Shown: positions 2,364 through 61,104 of the stretch, piece after piece
Layout of the letters: each line of letters starts with the position of its first letter
How positions within the stretch are numbered: position 1 is the first letter of the stretch
NCBI GenBank assembly: GCA_963693365.1
Contig: CAVNZM010000014.1
Location: 124,001 to 188,000 of the forward strand
Origin: Amoebidium appalachense
Taxonomy: Eukaryota > Protista > Ichthyosporea
Direction of reading: 5' to 3'
DNA: 64,000 bases
The notes under the pieces: generated by a model
What the model was told of the DNA's origin: nothing
What the model saw: only the letters and a program-made list of their open reading frames with translations
The model's database searches: none
Program-made: the position numbers and the translations under genes

Positions 2364-2449
2364 CCCTCCCCGCCTTCGAACCTGTTCGCTGCCCACCCCG
2401 CTTCCTGCCAATCCCGTCTTCTTTACAAGTCCCCCCCCCATGCTTCTCA

Positions 2450-2484
2450 TCGTGTATGCGTACTTCGTACCGTGTTCCGCATTC

Positions 2485-2486
<2 letters not shown>
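2450..2486 (+). mobile_element. 3'-terminal fragment of the same repeat (subfamily 1)
   Basis: TCGTGTATGCGTACTTCGTACCGTGTTCCGCATTCAA is an exact match to the last 37 nt of 58535-58810 and is followed by a long C-run. Confidence 0.85.
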
Positions 2487-2548
<62 letters not shown>

Positions 2549-2844: not shown

Positions 2845-13378
<10,534 letters not shown>

Positions 13379-21977: not shown

Positions 21978-23795
21978 CTACCAATAGGAAACGAGACACG
22001 TCACCATAGCAACCACCCACATGGCCACCCCACCACGTGCACCATGTGCTGCCTCACTTGCTTTCTGGCTGCTTCCAGCAGGCACCGCATTCAAATTGTT
22101 GCTCGATTTAGCATCACACGTGGTACCGTTTAGGCTCTGCCCAAAATACGAATTTTCAAGTCGGAGGCCAGGGGGGTCCCTTTTGCTCGGGTTGCGAAGA
22201 AGCGGCATGGCATCGGCACGGGAACGAACCCCCCCGCAGATCGTCAAATTCATGGCAAGTGGAGCAATGGGTGGCTTTACATAGGCATATCCACATGCAG
22301 TCCAATTGATTGCGGGATAGTAGAAGACAACATCCAGACACATTTCCTCGTGACTAGCCATCCCGAAACTCACGTTCTTGTCTGTGGGGTTTGTGTACAC
22401 ACAGTGCGTGTTTAACCTATCACCGGGTTTAACCACTACCGGTTTGTCGAGGTTGATGAAGCGTTGGTAGCCAAAGTCGTAGTAGTCTGCCCTGCCTACG
22501 TCACCAAGGTAGGTGCCGTTGCCATCGTGGTGGGTGGTCCACATCTTGGTGCCCACCTGTGTGTGTGTGTGTGTGTGTGTGTATGTTATGCCAGAACATA
22601 GGGGAAAAGAGGCGGTCAGGGCCAACCCGATTCAGCAGTAGCATGGGATATTCGTAACCGTGTCTATCACAAACAATCGCATTTATTTGATTGTTAAATG
22701 AAGCTTCACCCATCACTGGAGGTGATAGCGCCAACAATAAACTTTTTCCATTTACTGCACGTGTTTTTTCTCTCCATCTCCCTCCCTTTTGCGCATGGTG
22801 CTGGTAGGGGAAGGGGCAAGGGGCAAGGGGCAAGGGGGGCGTGTTTTGAATGCGTAATAAGGTACGAAGTACACGACAACAACGGATAACACGATGCAGA
22901 ATGCAAACCATACATAAAGAGTATGCGTCATAAGCAGAGCCGGGGGGGGGGGGGGGGGGGGGGGGGTTGAATGCGGAACACGGTACGAAGTACGCATACA
23001 CGAAGGACACATGCAAAGGCAAACATTCAAGTATGCAACATAGCCATGCGCGCAGTATGCGTCATAAGCAGAGCCCATCTTCAGGGAGGGCCCAAGTCAT
23101 CAATTGCGTCTGAGTTTCGACCCCTTAGCCCGCGTATATACGACTCTCCAACTCAGACAGCAGCATCAACTGAACTTGGGAGGGTCAACCCGTCTTGATC
23201 AAAGACGAGCAGGGTTGCTTATGCAAGCAAGGTGAGCAAACGATGAATATGTGTGTGCAAACTAATGCAGTGCAGCGAAAAATGCGTATGTGCTTACAGA
23301 TGCACGACACAGAGCAACCATGCCCGGTTGCATGGAAGCAAAGCGGTCGGGGGGGGGGTGGGGGGTGGGTGGGGGGCTGCTTTTCTATGGCCACCTACAA
23401 TACAGTCATTTGCCTTGTGAGAATTTTTGCACCCTGACGCCAACGCACAAGCCGGTGCCTACCATGGGCATAGTTGCCGCACACACAAACACAACACCAC
23501 ACAAAATACACACACAAGATACACGCACACATTCACACACCGTCACACGCACATACAAAAAGGAACACACAATAATCAGCCCGCACCCCCCCCCCCCCAA
23601 AAAAAAAAAAAAAATTAAAAATTAAAAAAATACATCAGCAAACCGACACGTTTACGCACCTGGTGCATGTGTGCAAAGTCAGCAAAGATGGTGAGTGATT
23701 GGTTGAGTTTGGCTGTGCACTGTTCGGGGCAATCGTATTCGTACTCAATGGTCTGCCCGGCAGGGATGTTGGAGTCATCGTAGAAAGAGAAGAGG

Positions 23796-29894: not shown

Positions 29895-31292
29895 ACACAC
29901 TAAGCAGATAGCCAAAGATATCCAGGACTCCTGAAAACAGACCCATAATACTTGTACCTCTGCCACAACGTTCACACTCACACACCACTAAGCAAACAGC
30001 CGTGCCGAATGTACATAGCACACACATGTACATGCAGGCAAACAGTAACCCCCTTATTCACACACACACACGCCGACTTGAACATGGCACAGAATTTGCA
30101 GACACACACACACACATGTTACATGTTGTCCATGATATCTCTGCTACAATGCAGCCCTAATTAAAACTTAGGGAATAGTTAACTGTTCGTCGTAGTGGTG
30201 GGGTGGTTGGTTGGTTGATTGGTTGCCGGGGGGGGGGGGGGGGGGGGGGGGGGGGAGGGGAGGGGGGAGCCTCCGCGGGAGATTTGCCAGCCGTGGTCAA
30301 CGGAGCCGTCGGACCCCCAAAGGGGAGGGGGGGGGGGGGACCGGAGGACCCACCACCCCCTCGAGCAGGTGGCCATGGATCCCCTCTCGAGCCCCCCCCC
30401 CCCCCCCCCACCCCCCCACAGGCATTGTGGAAGAGGCGGGACCACCACAGGAACATGGGAGACCTTAAAATTTTTATCAGTACCCCCCCCCCCCCCCCCC
30501 CCCCCCCCATTTTCCTTTTTTAAAAAGCCTAACGGGGAGAAGGTGGAGGGAGGGGGGGCTGAGAGAAACACGGAGAGGAGTCGGAAGGGCCTGGGGGGGG
30601 GGGGGGGGGGGGGGGAAGAAATCGAAGTGTTTGCACGAAATTTCCCGGTCAAAGTTGATGAGCTTAAATCTACTGCAGGCTTGCAAAGGTGTTTTTCCAT
30701 CAACTTTGGATGGTTGACGGTGCTATGTACTTGTAAGTCACATTCTTACACGACGAGGAAACATATATGGTTGACTGCAAGAGGGATGCATATGGCACAT
30801 GTACATGTGTTGAGCACGTACACAAATTTTCAAATCCCCCCCGGGCCCCCTCCCCCCCCCTCCCCCCCACGCCCCCCCCCCCCCCCCCCCCCCCTTCTTC
30901 CGGCCCCCGGGCACCCCCCCCCCCACCCAAGTACCCCTTCCCATCCCGGGCTAGATCTTCCCCCTCCCCCCTCCCCCCCCTCCCCCCTCTTAACCCCCCT
31001 CCCCCTCAACACACACACACACACGGGCCCTACTCAATCAATTTTGTACAGAACTCATGTCAATGTGTGCTTCGTCGCTGCTAGCTGACAAGTTGTTCCA
31101 CCGGCCCGTCATGGTAGTGTTGAAAGAAACGTTATAAGCAAAAACTGAACGTTGCAAACCCACTCAGTCAGAATAACCGCTAGTGGAACATATCGTGGAT
31201 AGTGGAATGATCGTGGACACTCCTACACCCTAGAATACCCCTGCAAAACGAATTTCGAGGCTCGGAAAAGTTAACTGTGAAAATATATTATC

Positions 31293-31682
31293 ATGACTTT
31301 ATTGATATGCTCAGCAAAATAGAAGCCATCGAGATATCATCGATATCTCGGAGAAGAAAAATACAAAAGCCCTCACTCTCGGATACGGAGGAGATAACGA
31401 CTTAAATAATCATACACCTTAGAAAACTCATCAAACATACCGTGGTTCAACAGATATTCAATAGACGTAATTATCAGGATTATCTAAATAAGCCAGTCTT
31501 CTGATTTCTAACGGAATAATCTGAGATAAATAAATACATCTATCTAAGTTTTTACGAGAAAAAGGTTCTGCACAAAAGTGGCACAAACATTTATGGATAA
31601 TGACTTTATTGATATGCTCAGCAAAATAGAAGACATCGAGATATCACCGATATCTCGGAGAGGAAAATACAAAAGCCCTCAC
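31293..31682 (+). repeat. 84-bp direct repeat pair (31293-31376, 31600-31682), each with an internal palindrome
   Basis: ATGACTTTATTGATATGCTCAGCAAAATAGAAG.CATCGAGATATCA.CGATATCTCGGAGA.GAAAA..TACAAAAGCCCTCAC occurs twice. Confidence 0.9.
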
Positions 31683-35362: not shown

Positions 35363-35398
<36 letters not shown>

Positions 35399-36427
35399 TT
35401 TGAGGATGGGCTCTGCTTATAATGCATGCTCCTTGTGGTTTGCTCTCTGCATTATGCTGCGCATTATGAAGAATTCGTTCTCTATAACACATCCCCTCCC
35501 TCCCCCCCCTACGGGCACACTTTATCTCCCGAAAGGGAGCAAGGGGTAAGTGTTAAAGACACACTAGTTGAAATTGCTTTTTGGTTCACGGACGTGTGTG
35601 TGTGTCCGAGTGTCTTCCTGGCCCTTGGCTGGGTATGTTTGGTGTTTGGTGGTGGTGTCGGGTGGGCAGACTCGCGGACATGCAGATGCTTTGTGTGGGA
35701 AAGGTGGGTGGGTGGGTGGGAAAGGGGCGAAGGGGGGGGGGGGGGGGGGGGGAGAGGGTGGGAGAATGAGGGGGGTGGGTGGGTGGGTGGGAGAGGGGAA
35801 AAGGCGGGGTGAGGGGGTAGGGGGAGGGGGGAGAATTATCATGCTTGAGGCGTAGGGTTGCATTTTTTTTGTTTGTTGTTTTGTTTCGTTTGTGGTGGTG
35901 GTGGTGGTGTGTGTGTGTGTGTGTGTGTGTGTGCGTTTTGGGGGGGGGAGGGGGGGGGGGGGAGCAGAGACAGAAGGGCAGGTGAGTGTGTGTGTGCATG
36001 GCGGCAGGGAGGGGTTGCATCTGATTGGTGGGGTCTCTATCAGCCTGGCAGTGGTTCCTCAGGGCGGCAACACCGGTCTGGTCGGTGAGGCATCTTCCTC
36101 CCTTCCCCCCCAGTTCCTATCTATATTTTTCTTGCTTCTGCTTACTGCTGCAACTTTAACCCCCGGCCTTTCCCACTGCCCTTGCCTGCATAAGCAACCC
36201 TGCTCGTCTCTGATCAAGACGGGTGACCTACTCATGTTCAAGTGAAACAGTATCTGAGTTGGGTTTCGTTAACGAGGGGAATAGGTCGAAACTCGGGTAC
36301 TGTGGATGACGTGGGCCCCCCCTGAGGATGGGCTCTGCTTATTATGCATCCTCTTTATGTATGGCTTGCATTCTGCATCGTGTTATCCGTTTGTTCTTGT
36401 GTACTTCGTACTTTTTGACGCATTCAA

Positions 36428-36464
<37 letters not shown>

Positions 36465-36644
36465 AGAGTGCACTGCAGCCCACCCCCTCCTTCCTCCCCT
36501 CTCCGCCCCTGCACGTTCACACACAGATTGACTGTGTGTTTTTCAGGGGGCAGTGTGCCTGTATTTGATGAGATCGTGCTCTCCATGGGGCTCATGAATA
36601 AGATTCTGCATCTGGACGAGGTTTCAGGTATCACACATCGCACA

Positions 36645-39803: not shown

Positions 39804-40072
39804 GGGAGGAGAAAGGAAAATAGAAAAGGATGGGAAAGGGAGCTTGGGAAATTTCCGAGACGGGGGGAGAGAGGAGGCCGTGTGCAAGAATCTGACCCTG
39901 CAAACGGCATGCCAAGTGAATGGAGAAGGAAAAAGGCTCATACTATTGTAAATGGTTACGGACAATCGTCATGGGGCTGTAGCTCAGTGGTAGAGCGCTC
40001 GCTTTGCATGCGAGATGCCTTGGGTTCGATCCCCAACTGCTCCAGATCTTTCCTTTTTTGTTTTGTTGCACT

Positions 40073-40220: not shown

Positions 40221-41254
40221 CTATATATATATATTCCCCCTTTTTCGTCGCCGCAATTCCAATTTTTTCCTTCTCCTTCACGCCAAGCATTTCTTTATTC
40301 ATGTGTGTGTGTGTGTTGCTTTTACCAGGATTTATGTTGTTAGAGGGTTAGGTGTGCTCGATGGAAGCTTTATGTTGCAGGGGAGGGCTTTCCCTCGATT
40401 GGGAACTGTGGGGCTGTAGCTCAGTGGTAGAGCGCTCGCTTTGCATGCGAGATGCCTTGGGTTCGATCCCCAACTGCTCCATACTTTTTCCCCTTTCTCT
40501 TTTTGACTTCTTTTTGACCTTCTGTCATTCCCGTTTTTGTTATCTTGTAATTGTTGCCCTCCCGCCAAACGAAATCTTTCTGCCCCTGTTACACTGCGTT
40601 TCCTTCTGTTCGGTTCCCCTTTCAGTTTTTTTGTTGCCCTCTTGCCCTCTCTGCTCCATAATCCTTCCCTGTTTATTGCATTTGATAGAACTTTGTGTTG
40701 TTTTCAGTCCATGAGACCTGCAACTGCATGCACATGTGATGATTGCCTTTTTGCCTCCCGGCCACTCTCCCTGCCTCTCCCGTTTTGTCAATCAATCACG
40801 ACCTCCACCTAAAGAGAGAGCTGGATGTTTATATGCAGCTATATTTGTGTATGCCTCTGTGTATTTATTTGCTAAAGCGCGCATGCTCACCGGTATGTTC
40901 GGGAAAGTGTTTCCTTGTTCGCTAGGGTGGGATACCAACGAAGATATGAAGAACATGAGTTCAATGTTGTAAGATCGTGGTCCGTCCCCGGTCTCCAACC
41001 GGGGCTGTAGCTCAGTGGTAGAGCGCTCGCTTTGCATGCGAGATGCCTTGGGTTCGATCCCCAACTGCTCCACGGTTTTTTTTTTCTTCTTTTTTTTTTT
41101 TCTCCCCTTTCTTTTTTTTCTTTTTCTTTTTTCTTTTTCTTTTTTTTTTTTTTTTTTGGTTCAGGGAGGGGGAGGGGGAGAGGGAGTAGGGGGGGGGGGG
41201 GGGGGGGGGGGTATACATCTTCCCCTCCCCTCTGCACCCCCCATTTCCCCCCTC

Positions 41255-42069: not shown

Positions 42070-43843
42070 CCGTCAACGTTGCATTCCTTGGCTGCAGCAG
42101 CTATGAGGATGTGTGCCGCATTCTGTCCGAGTCAAAGCGCCAACTCGGTGAAATTCTGTCCGGTATATACCCCTGACACTGCTTAGAAGGGAAAAAGACT
42201 GAGGGGGGAAGGGAAGGGGGGTTTTTTTTTTGGGGGGGGGGGGGGGGGAGGGGGAGGGGGGGGGGGGGGGAGGAGATGGCTTTGAGGAGTGAGTAGGATG
42301 GGCAAGGGTAGACAGAGTGGTCTCTTCTGTATGGGTGTGAGATGATGGGTGGCTCATGGAGTCAGGTGGTGGTGGTGGTGGTGGTGATATTGTGTGTGAT
42401 TGTGTGTGATGGTGTGTTAAGTCGGGGAGGGGGGGAGGAGGAGGGGGGTGGTTTTCGATAGTACTCGTATCAATAGTGTGTGTTGACACACGTACCACCT
42501 TGCCTAACAAGGCTTAACCTGACTCCTGCCCGCCCCCCCTTCCTTCTGCAGCATGTGAGTTCCTTGATGATGGCAGCATGAATGCCGTCACCACCCACCT
42601 CAAGCGCACAAACCCCGTCAGTGGATCCTACCCGTTCTATGCCCTGATCGAGACATCGGGCTCAAACAACGACCACGATATGGAGGTACTTACTGCACGC
42701 CCATATAGCTCATATATATGTGTGTGGCTTGCCTCTTGCTGTTCACTGTGTGCTGCAGCCATGCGCGCATGAATGGACATCCTGGTGCAGACAACCCTTC
42801 CCCCCCCCCCCCTCCTCCCCCCCCCCCCCGCGGCCCTTCCTACCCACCCACCCAGAACCCAGTCCATGTTCAAGTGAAGCAGTATTTGGTTGGGCTTCGT
42901 CACAGGGTGAATTGGTCGGAACTCGGGTACCGTGGGTGACTTGCCCCCTCCTAGAGAGGAGCTCTGCTTATTATCCATATGTTTCTGTGTTTTGCACTCT
43001 GCAATATGTTGCCCGTTTATCATGTTTACTTCGTAAATTATAATGCATTATACCCCCCCTCCCCCCCCCCCCCAACCCTTGCCCCCCCCCCCACCCACAC
43101 CCACACACCTACCCCCCCCCCCCCACACACACACACACACGCAACCCCCCCCCCCCCCCCCCCCCCCCCCCCACACACACACACAGAAACTCAACAACTT
43201 CTTGGAGCACATTATGGGTGAGGGCTACTGCCTGGACGGCACCTTGGCACAGGACTCGAAGCAGGTTCGTGTGTGTGTGTGTGTGTTGTTGTGTGTGCGC
43301 GACCGCGTGCGTGTGTGCGTGCGCGCTTGTATGCGTGCTTGTATGCGTGCGTGCGTGGGCGTGCGTGCGTGGGCGTGCGTTGTGTGTGTGTGGGGATGGG
43401 TTGTTGGAAGGGTGTGTGGGTGGTGGCGGCAGCGGCGGCGGCAGCGGTGGTGTGTTTGTGTATGTGCTTTTTTTTGGGGGGGGGGGGGGGGGGGGGGAAG
43501 AGGTGGGGGGTGAGGGGTGAGGGGGTGAGGGGAGGGGGGGGGGGGAGGAGAGAGAGAGAGAAGGGGGGGGGGGGATTGGTCTAAAGATCTGTATGCGCAT
43601 GTGGGGTTGTGCGCACACGATTGTGGTTATCGTGTTGTGTGTGCGTGTGTGTGTGTTTGTTGTGGGGGGGAGGGGGGAGGGGAGATATAGATGATTGTGG
43701 CCTACATTGTTGTTCGAGGTCTGGATGAGTTTGTGGCAAGACCGAGGAAGGGCAGGAGAAAAGATGACACGGGGGGGGGGGAAGGGGGGGGGGGGGGGGG
43801 GGGGGGGGGAGGGTGTGTGGGGCGGTTTAATTTTTTTTCCTTT

Positions 43844-46752: not shown

Positions 46753-54044
<7,292 letters not shown>

Positions 54045-58308: not shown

Positions 58309-58361
<53 letters not shown>

Positions 58362-59309
58362 AAAAAAAAACTCGGGTACTGTGGATGACGTGGGCACCTC
58401 CTGAGGATGGGCTCTGCTTATTATGCATACTCTTTATGTATGGTTTGCACTCTATATCCTGTTATCCGTTGGTCATGTGTACTACGTACTTTATGACGCA
58501 TTCAAACCCCCCCCCCCCCCCCCCCCCCCCCCCCGTTTTGCTCACCTTGCTTGCATAAGCAACCCTGCTCGTCTTTGATCAAGACGGGTTGACCCTCCCA
58601 AGTTCAGTTGATGCTGCTGTCTGAGTTGGAGAGTCGTATATATGCGGGCTAAGGGGTCGAAACTCAGACGCAATTGATGACTTGGGCCCTCCCTGAGGAT
58701 GGGCTCTGCTTATGACGCATACTGCGCGCATGGCTATGTTGCATACTTGAATGTTTGCCTTTGCATGTGTCCTTCGTGTATGCGTACTTCGTACCGTGTT
58801 CCGCATTCAACCCCCCCCCCTCCCCCCTGCTTTTCTCAGAAGTCATCTGTGAGGGCCCCTCTGCCGAAGCTTAAATGTCACACCCACACATGCACCCTCT
58901 TGTTTTTGACCACCCTGCCTTGCCCCCCCCCCCCCCCCCCCCCCCACCCCAAAAAAAAAGAAAGAAAAAAAGAAGAAAAGAAAAGAAAACGTGCACCCAC
59001 ACAGCGGCATACGCAAACGCACACAGGCACACACGTGTGCAGGCATACCTCCTGCACATGCACGGGTGTACACAGACAAAACGCACAGAGATATACACAC
59101 ATGCAGGCATGTGCGCGCGCACACACACTGACCTCATCCCTTCCCCCCCCCTCCCCCCCCTCCCCCCCCCCCCCCCCCCCCCCCCCTCCCCAACACACAC
59201 ACACAAACACGCACGACCGAGTGAAACCAGTTTTTACGTCACTTCTTTCTCAGTCTTGGAGAAAAAACACACTTTCTTCCTCAGCGCCCCCCCCCCCCCC
59301 CCCCCCTTC

Positions 59310-60429: not shown

Positions 60430-61104
60430 ACTCGCTCGCATCACACACACACACTGTCACTCACTCACATGACACACCGCACACACACACACACGTGCAT
60501 GCACACACGAGCAAGACACCCGCACGCCGCACACAGACCCACACGCACATCTTCCTCCAGTTGCTCCCCACCCATCCCCTCACCCTCCACCCCCCCCTTG
60601 AGATTGGGCTCCGCTTATGATGCATATTCCTTTCCTTTCATTGCTTTTCAATCTGCACTGTGTTGCCCGTCATGTGCTCAGGAACACATTCTTAACCCCC
60701 CTCCACCCCCCCCCCCTTCCCTCTCTCCCTCCCTCCCTCCTTCCCGCCGGGGAGGGAACCCACCGTACGGATTGAGCTGAACTAAATAACCCCCCCCCCC
60801 CCCCCCCCTCCTTCCCCCACCCCACCCCCCCCCCCCCCCCCCCCCCCACCCCCTGCACATGCACACAGACAAGTGCGTGCGCACGCACACACGCACACAC
60901 ACACACACATGCACACACACACACACATGCACACACACACATGCACACACACACACACACACAGCCACCCATGTATCAGGCAAGCCACAAGTTCCGTCTT
61001 GTGTTTGGCGACTACCAATACGTGCTCAAGGTGGGGGGGCCGGAGGAGAGGAACGAATGGGTCACACAGACAATAGGTGCCACGGAGTGGCTGGATACAG
61101 TGGA

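Follow-up and report, generated by a model that had tools for sequence, protein, structure and literature searches.

The window analyzed here is a 64,000-nt stretch of an Amoebidium appalachense contig, and all coordinates count from its first letter. A profile search of the window for a non-coding repeat of ~275 nt returned 19 matches at E <=10, of which 11 with E <1e-6 are treated as copies, one had E 0.007, and seven weak ones were dropped. Three of the 11 copies are full length (~275 nt): a subfamily A copy at 36172-36428 (+), which makes up about half of an intron at ~36088-36546 and is followed by a C run; a subfamily B copy at 58537-58811 (+), which has C runs on both sides and serves as the reference for the coordinates of individual parts; and a second B copy at 22964-23240 (-), 99% identical to the first and located within an intron of a minus-strand copper monooxygenase gene. 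The 5' end is absent from the other eight, seven of which keep the 3' end. These comprise 5'-truncated copies at 58368-58507 (+), which is A-type and joined head-to-tail to the B copy via a C run, at 22842-22941 (-), directly behind the C tail of the copy at 23240, and at 5557-5661 (+), in an intron of a CLPB-like gene; 5'-truncated, decayed copies at 35394-35494 (+) and, in a PH-domain gene, at 60591-60697 (+); a decayed A-type copy with a mutated core at 42859-43057 (+), which begins in helix b of the fold described below and spans the predicted cut; a short decayed copy lacking both ends at 51817-51871 (-); and a 3'-terminal fragment with a long C run at 2442-2490 (+).

Nearly every copy ends in a C run, and many also begin at one. 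The 11 copies occupy nine loci, two of which hold head-to-tail pairs, and because both pairs combine unlike subfamilies, they are not rolling-circle multimers; two complete units were found at none of the nine loci in the window. Subfamilies A and B differ at 33 of 164 aligned columns of the structured region. The 3' domain (58714-58811, +) is subfamily-specific apart from a shared short motif at its end, before the C run, and is likely the end that a reverse transcriptase would recognize. The repeat is abundant in the DNA and does not stem from misassembly: 11490 and 8786 contigs lie on the B stretch in two DNA runs and 11 and 206 in two others, contig depth being no copy number. The copy at 22842-22941 (-) begins with B-type letters and continues with A-type ones, suggesting a third subfamily or a chimera, and a decayed fragment of the 5' half of the element (5696-5740, +; E 0.007) lies behind the C tail of the copy at 5557 and ends a few bases before the predicted cut. 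The C run upstream of the 5'-truncated copy is separated from it by ~19 A (58352-58370), which resemble an untemplated 5'-junction addition. Runs of at least 10 in the window number 101 for C and 85 for G, as against 15 for A and 13 for T, and some of them may be tails of decayed copies. The window also holds an 87-nt direct repeat with 94% identity in an AT-rich stretch (31290-31376 and 31597-31682).

A host gene could be assigned for eight loci, all but that of the fragment at 2442-2490, with gene limits set by eye, and in all eight the element lies on the sense strand. Among C runs of at least 10, 65 of 101 are on the sense strand, which gives p ~0.03 for eight sense loci out of eight, and the bias is also seen among copies without the ribozyme. 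Four host genes have Pfam support, and the intronic site of the 58368-58811 pair is assumed. The host of the copy at 36172-36428 is a D-2-hydroxyglutarate-dehydrogenase-like gene, and the search with the copper monooxygenase exon gave one match. A fifth host gene carries what we take to be phosphoesterase motifs, and the two of its exons that were searched gave no match. The window further contains a ribosomal protein S18 exon, to which an Ichthyophonus protein is 96% identical, the single match at E 1e-40 or better out of 1672 candidates and an indication of a probable ichthyosporean host, and three near-identical tRNA genes (UGC anticodon, alanine) at 39973-40044, 40410-40481, and 41001-41072 (+), inside the span of the D-2-hydroxyglutarate-dehydrogenase-like gene and apparently intronic. 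On the minus strand, the reverse complement of the 5' end of B (58537-58548) contains what is presumably a strong splice-donor-like word, a possible reason for the purging of antisense full-length copies.

The structured region and its covariation

The structured region extends over ~170 nt and is described here on the plus strand of the B copy. It opens with the 5' strand of P1 (58555-58561) and a 3-bp extension, P1' (58563-58565), both invariant and found at 36190-36200 in the A copy, followed by hairpin h (58567-58589), which has a palindromic loop and a 5' strand for which the 3' end of the catalytic strand is an alternative partner. The displaced second half of hammerhead block C (58590-58596; A copy 36224-36230) contains an extra U, G10.1 at 58591, the 5' strand of stem II (helix a, 5 bp), and a variable hinge at 58596. 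It leads into the 5' strand of helix b (58597-58603; A copy 36231-36237), the counterpart of the type-SGC stem I-II interaction helix, and then into the 5' side of an internal loop between b and stem III (58604-58617), where a conserved UGA faces GAUG at 58676-58679; we take this putative loop motif to be K-turn-like in B and irregular in A. Block S (58618-58631; A copy 36248-36263) provides a stem III strand (helix c), U16.1 at 58626, U17 at 58627, and a stem I strand at 58628-58631. Stem I is linked to stem II by hairpin d (58632-58653), with a perfect 10-nt palindrome that differs between subfamilies, and block G (58654-58672; A copy 36283-36302) supplies the 3' strand of stem II, C11.1 at 58658, G12-A13-A14-A15.1 at 58659-58662, and the other stem III strand. 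The 3' strand of helix b (58680-58686; A copy 36309-36315) precedes the first half of block C (58689-58700; A copy 36319-36329), made up of a stem I strand (58689-58692), C3 to A9 (CUGAGGA, 58693-58699), and U at 58700, and the region closes with the 3' strands of P1' and P1 (58701-58713), which could also offer stem II a second, weaker partner whose third pair is a G.G mismatch. In hairpin h, loop and 3' strand (58575-58589) resemble a dead duplicate of the catalytic strand (58693-58704) with a 3-base insertion, and both can pair with the 5' strand of h, suggesting a decoy or an origin by terminal duplication. For hairpins h and d, with their palindromic loops, self-dimers of -10 to -16 kcal/mol are predicted, recalling dimeric Penelope hammerheads.

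A sequence-only reading of this DNA had proposed helices a, b, and c, a closing helix (P1), and a hairpin, threaded as a pseudoknot in the order a5'-b5'-c5'-hairpin-a3'-c3'-b3', and this architecture is borne out: all ten strands occur once each, at the places and in the order that had been given, and the listed pairs are without exception Watson-Crick or G.U in the two copies compared, placed there at 58535 and 36179. Five of the six pairs proposed for helix a stand, but the sixth is probably no pair, 58596 being T, A, or G across contigs (A at 34% and G at 28% of depth in one DNA run). The pairs of helix b are likewise canonical, but the U.G at its second pair is private to the 36179 copy, three of four rows having C-G. 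The compensatory changes that had been described are real, with 12 of 33 substituted columns lying inside three retained helices of at least 7 bp, a figure that six null models reached in 0, 0, 1, 0, 0, and 21 of 1000 runs; the four double changes alone are weaker (44, 52, 12, and 11 of 1500 in the null models). An alignment of copies had also been suggested, and among the 10 rows from window copies, just three or four of them informative, pairing was retained in 98.6% of 142 cells (5 of 500 shuffles), but the three doubly changed pairs were not significant (63 of 500 shuffles). The closing helix and hairpin h are conserved, as had been noted, and never vary; therefore they contribute no evidence from covariation. 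The asymmetry ascribed to G.U pairs is also evident, since 4 of 25 and 6 of 25 pairs would have no counterpart on the minus strand. Nested folding energy was no better than that of shuffles (z -1.13 and -0.02), a measure that is uninformative for a pseudoknot, and 0 of 7 variant sites from contigs at 58544-58713, on the subfamily B stretch, fall on the 15 core positions, which is not evidence, with 0.6 expected. The covariation derives from only two subfamilies and is below R-scape grade; these tests and, independently of them, the hammerhead core in exact register with the helices support the earlier proposal of selection on a pseudoknotted fold of the sense-strand RNA.

A candidate hammerhead core and its relation to type SGC

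The earlier reading left the fold unnamed, overlooked both the catalytic core and stem I, and included the one doubtful pair in helix a. On the evidence of the sequence, the ~170-nt region very probably adopts a hammerhead-type fold and holds a complete hammerhead core in the order S-G-C, with block C split after A9. Helix c corresponds to stem III, pairing A15.1 (58662) with U16.1 (58626), and helix a corresponds to stem II, pairing G10.1 with C11.1; the two helices meet at GAAA, the 5' strand of c is followed by UU, H17 is the U at 58627, and stem I (58628-58631 with 58689-58692) lies directly before CUGAGGA. The blocks follow one another as S, G, and C (58626 < 58659 < 58693), and the predicted stem lengths are 3-4 bp for stem I (4 in B, 3 in A), 5 bp for stem II, and 8-12 bp for stem III. 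CUGAnGA, GAAA, U16.1-H17, and G10.1-C11.1 are in register in all three full-length copies, on the sense strand only, and the sole core change in the second B copy (22964-23240) is at the free position N7. Because the stretch around the core hardly varies at all, conservation of the core adds no evidence of its own, and the A-U/G-C difference in stem I between subfamilies depends on an alignment gap.

An order-free descriptor matched the plus strand of both subfamilies and neither reverse complement, and its three matches on both strands of the window are the three full-length copies. On shuffles it matched 10 and 4 of 20000 loosely and 1 and 0 at near-observed stem lengths, and with the helices fixed and the free bases shuffled, the core was rebuilt in 0 of 400000 (product estimates 4e-6 and 3e-6); about eight RNA classes were first compared by eye, which weakens these chance figures by one or two orders without removing them. 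The HDV-like, twister, pistol, and hairpin ribozymes and the group I, RNase P/MRP, and C/D snoRNA classes have the wrong strand order or lack catalytic bases here, as judged by eye against what we take to be their consensus. A descriptor with A9 and G10.1 linked (at most 1-2 bases between) found no match in either subfamily. At gathering score, Rfam recognized no ribozyme in the window, only the three tRNAs, and a search of copy B gave four matches, none credible; a weak Hammerhead_1 match (E 1.6, below gathering score) aligned helix a as stem II before GAAA. Pattern scans gave 17 matches in metagenomes, all due to chance and without homology to the element beyond the pattern, one chance match without wider homology in viral sequences, where two further scans gave none, and one match in prokaryotes, a chance word. 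GUU is a slower cleavage triplet. From the model of the fold, cleavage in vitro between 58627 and 58628 (after 36260 in the A copy) is predicted with odds somewhat better than even.

The closest relative is type SGC (the HRIMA-1 motif), described in the pertinent sections of Eckert et al. 2023 (PMC10085705), where hammerheads are divided into blocks C, G, and S; the type comprises 583 sequences, known from metatranscriptome RNA only and from no known organism, which cleave at 0.007-0.19 per min and have a helix that ties stems I and II. The element shares with it the non-circular block order S-G-C, the core, and stems I-III, as well as the run of extra U, G10.1, stem II, one hinge base, and interaction helix (58590-58603), with the interaction helix, here b, attached at the far end of stem III; among the published rows, some share the words of subfamily A and some have U at H17. 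In contrast to type SGC, the element has a break in block C after A9, where P1/P1' and hairpin h are located, so that the run of stem II, hinge, and interaction helix lies upstream, cut off from CUGAGGA-U; it also joins what are the 3' and 5' ends of the published RNAs. A hairpin of 19-22 nt takes the place of the 0-8-nt S-G linker, the length is ~170 nt as opposed to at most 104, and the element resides in the genomic DNA of a eukaryote, whereas the published ones are known from RNA only. Compared by hand, the element falls outside the published descriptor (intact block C, linker of 0-8 nt, stem I of at least 4 bp) in its split block, its 19-22-nt linker, and the 3-bp stem I of subfamily A, and neither the circularly permuted order nor the gathering-score match that mark Rfam hammerhead types I-III was found. 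It is best read as type-SGC architecture with a split block C, which is predicted to work like type SGC while failing the published membership rule. In the same sections, Eckert et al. assume that block C is uninterruptible and that the A9-G10.1 link is required.

Precedents exist for a lesser interruption at this site. An extra base at A9/G10.1 is natural in CChMVd, and when that base is U the rate is 3-4-fold higher (PMC3705267, citing a 2001 paper); an extra base between A9 and G10.1 is also conserved in Penelope ribozymes, according to the relevant part of PMC4209133. Like these hammerheads, the element has a U after A9 and a U before G10.1; unlike them, its insertion consists of two helices and the chain ends instead of one base. 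The core insertions in the portion of Perreault et al. (PMC3088659) concerned lie elsewhere, and a 2026 paper (PMC13725137) mentions variants with additional helices, of which the consulted text of one of the three sources cited there (PMC10162972) contains none. Searches of the open-access literature, at the level of listings, yielded no split or genomic type-SGC ribozyme, no domain inserted at A9/G10.1, and no report of this repeat.

Alternative readings of the fold

Points against cleavage come from both competing folds and the copies themselves. A local hairpin covering the core is predicted at -13.0 and -10.4 kcal/mol, and pairing of the core with the 5' strand of hairpin h at -11.2 kcal/mol; such folds could silence the predicted ribozyme. 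None of the eight truncated copies starts at the predicted cut and 4 of 11 copies span it, nor does contig depth step up there, although contig depth cannot show ends. The full-length copies that span the cut, with none beginning there, fit a hammerhead relic that no longer cuts and whose shape is kept for reverse transcriptase binding or as an exonuclease block that sets the 5' end, as do the split core, the short stem I, the rival hairpins, and the poor in vitro cleavage of Penelope minimal hammerheads (in the relevant part of PMC4209133); in addition, all assignable copies are intronic and host-sense, a setting in which rapid cleavage could come at a cost. However, the core bases, including those that serve chemistry only, are intact in all three full-length copies, which belong to subfamilies with differences at 33 of 164 columns, and the products would remain paired, so that truncated copies need not result from cutting. 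We therefore regard a relic as unlikely, albeit the most serious alternative. An RNA switch, in which the helices of the earlier reading are the OFF state and cutting needs the strand after A9-U as stem II with block C intact, appears more improbable still. Such a linked stem II can form in both subfamilies (G-C and G.U, a mismatch, and a further 2-4 pairs; -5.6 and -2.6 kcal/mol), stems II as short as 1-2 bp occur in nature (as reported in part of PMC3088659), and the palindromic loops could set off refolding in dimers, but helix a is more stable (-9.4 and -7.3 kcal/mol) and covaries, the upstream strand alone continues into the hinge and interaction helix as in type SGC, and the linked form requires the opening of P1, with pair probabilities of 0.98 and 0.77.

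Two further readings would dispense with the ribozyme. If the repeat were a tRNA-derived SINE, its conserved words would be polymerase III A and B boxes and the likeness to a hammerhead coincidental; A- and B-box-like words, with one mismatch each, do occur in the right order in both copies and overlap blocks S and G. This is very improbable, as such boxes occur in ~20% of shuffles (621 and 594 of 3000), likeness to the tRNA of the window is not significant (260 and 1858 of 2000), no tRNA match appears at E up to 10, and the boxes lie ~80 nt inside the element, not at its 5' end, leaving CUGAnGA and stem I unaccounted for. Even less credible is a constraint at the DNA level, either on single strands or on the palindromic sites at which proteins bind a DNA transposon, a reading to which several palindromes and subterminal inverted repeats lend themselves and against which stand the G.U-dependent strand asymmetry, the RNA-specific catalytic core, and 5' truncation combined with a homopolymer tail.

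Proposed mode of spread and implications

Returning to the split S-G-C hammerhead, all its helices are compatible simultaneously, and the core alone is left unpaired. P1' and h may stack, with A9 and G10.1 leaving the same nick via one U each in an arrangement like a four-way junction; helix b would hold stems I and II together, and the internal loop between b and stem III could supply a bend. The 3' product would contain all of stem I, and five helices (P1, P1', II, b, and III) bridge the predicted cut; therefore, the products would stay together as a nicked, resealable RNA. Cutting may thus be slow and reversible, the nick being resealed by the ribozyme itself or by an RtcB-type ligase.

The repeat is likely a retroposon mobilized by a Penelope-type element. 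Its 5' truncation in 8 of 11 copies, head-to-tail arrangement at 2 of 9 loci, and flanking C runs are traits of the Chlamys type, not unique to Penelope elements, and the chances of a Penelope partner appear about even; no reverse transcriptase partner or open reading frame was seen in the window. The Chlamys Penelope-like elements and the non-autonomous MRC1, as presented in the relevant portions of Craig et al. 2021 (PMC8557442), show the same 5' truncation, head-to-tail insertions, and (C)n target bias, and, unlike them, the repeat has no visible autonomous partner or open reading frame. Most Chlamys elements lack canonical hammerheads, according to these portions, which mention split 'half cores', and the supplement file of that paper that was consulted contains no ichthyosporean names. 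The main text of the ichthyosporean genome preprint (10.1101/2024.01.08.574619) has no occurrence of SINE or Penelope. Like the non-LTR retrozymes in the relevant sections of Cervera and de la Pena 2020 (PMC7229834), which are circularized at this size mainly by RtcB, the repeat is non-coding, within 170-400 nt, present at high copy, and hammerhead-bearing. However, those retrozymes have type I ribozymes, form tandem arrays, and are reportedly excluded from introns, whereas the repeat is dispersed, intronic, host-sense, C-tailed, and permuted. Dependence of retrozymes on Penelope-like elements has been proposed (part of Li et al. 2026, 10.64898/2026.07.22.740005).

RtcB circularization of retrozymes, their dependence on Penelope-like elements, and the Chlamys traits together lead us to propose a model of retroposition. 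The core, stems, covariation, sense polarity, 5' truncation, C tails, and head-to-tail pairs are observed in the sequence itself. Since the element has no promoter beyond chance, its copies would be transcribed by read-through inside host introns. Cuts in two neighboring copies would release a unit-length, retrozyme-like circle, an intermediate that we consider doubtful, and new copies would be made by a Penelope-type reverse transcriptase that uses the G strand of genomic C/G runs, set against the C tail, as its primer. For the account as a whole, a split S-G-C ribozyme in a high-copy repeat that likely cuts slowly after U17 and likely serves spread by reverse transcription, we estimate a probability of roughly 0.6. 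At odds slightly short of even, the element would be an active hammerhead of a new C2-S-G-C1 topology and, as far as the portions of the literature covered go, the first non-circularly permuted ribozyme in the genome of a cell, which may stem from a viroid-like circle captured by a Penelope-type reverse transcriptase and now be present as thousands of sense intronic copies.

If the element does cleave, the three-block rule by which hammerhead permutations have been enumerated would be broken, and present descriptors would miss a class of ribozymes, perhaps including Penelope-like families reported to be without hammerheads. Cleavage would also offer a natural site for grafting domains into the hammerhead core. 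A fold so far known from viroid-like RNAs alone would then have a high-copy home in a eukaryotic genome, which would connect infectious circles with retroposons.
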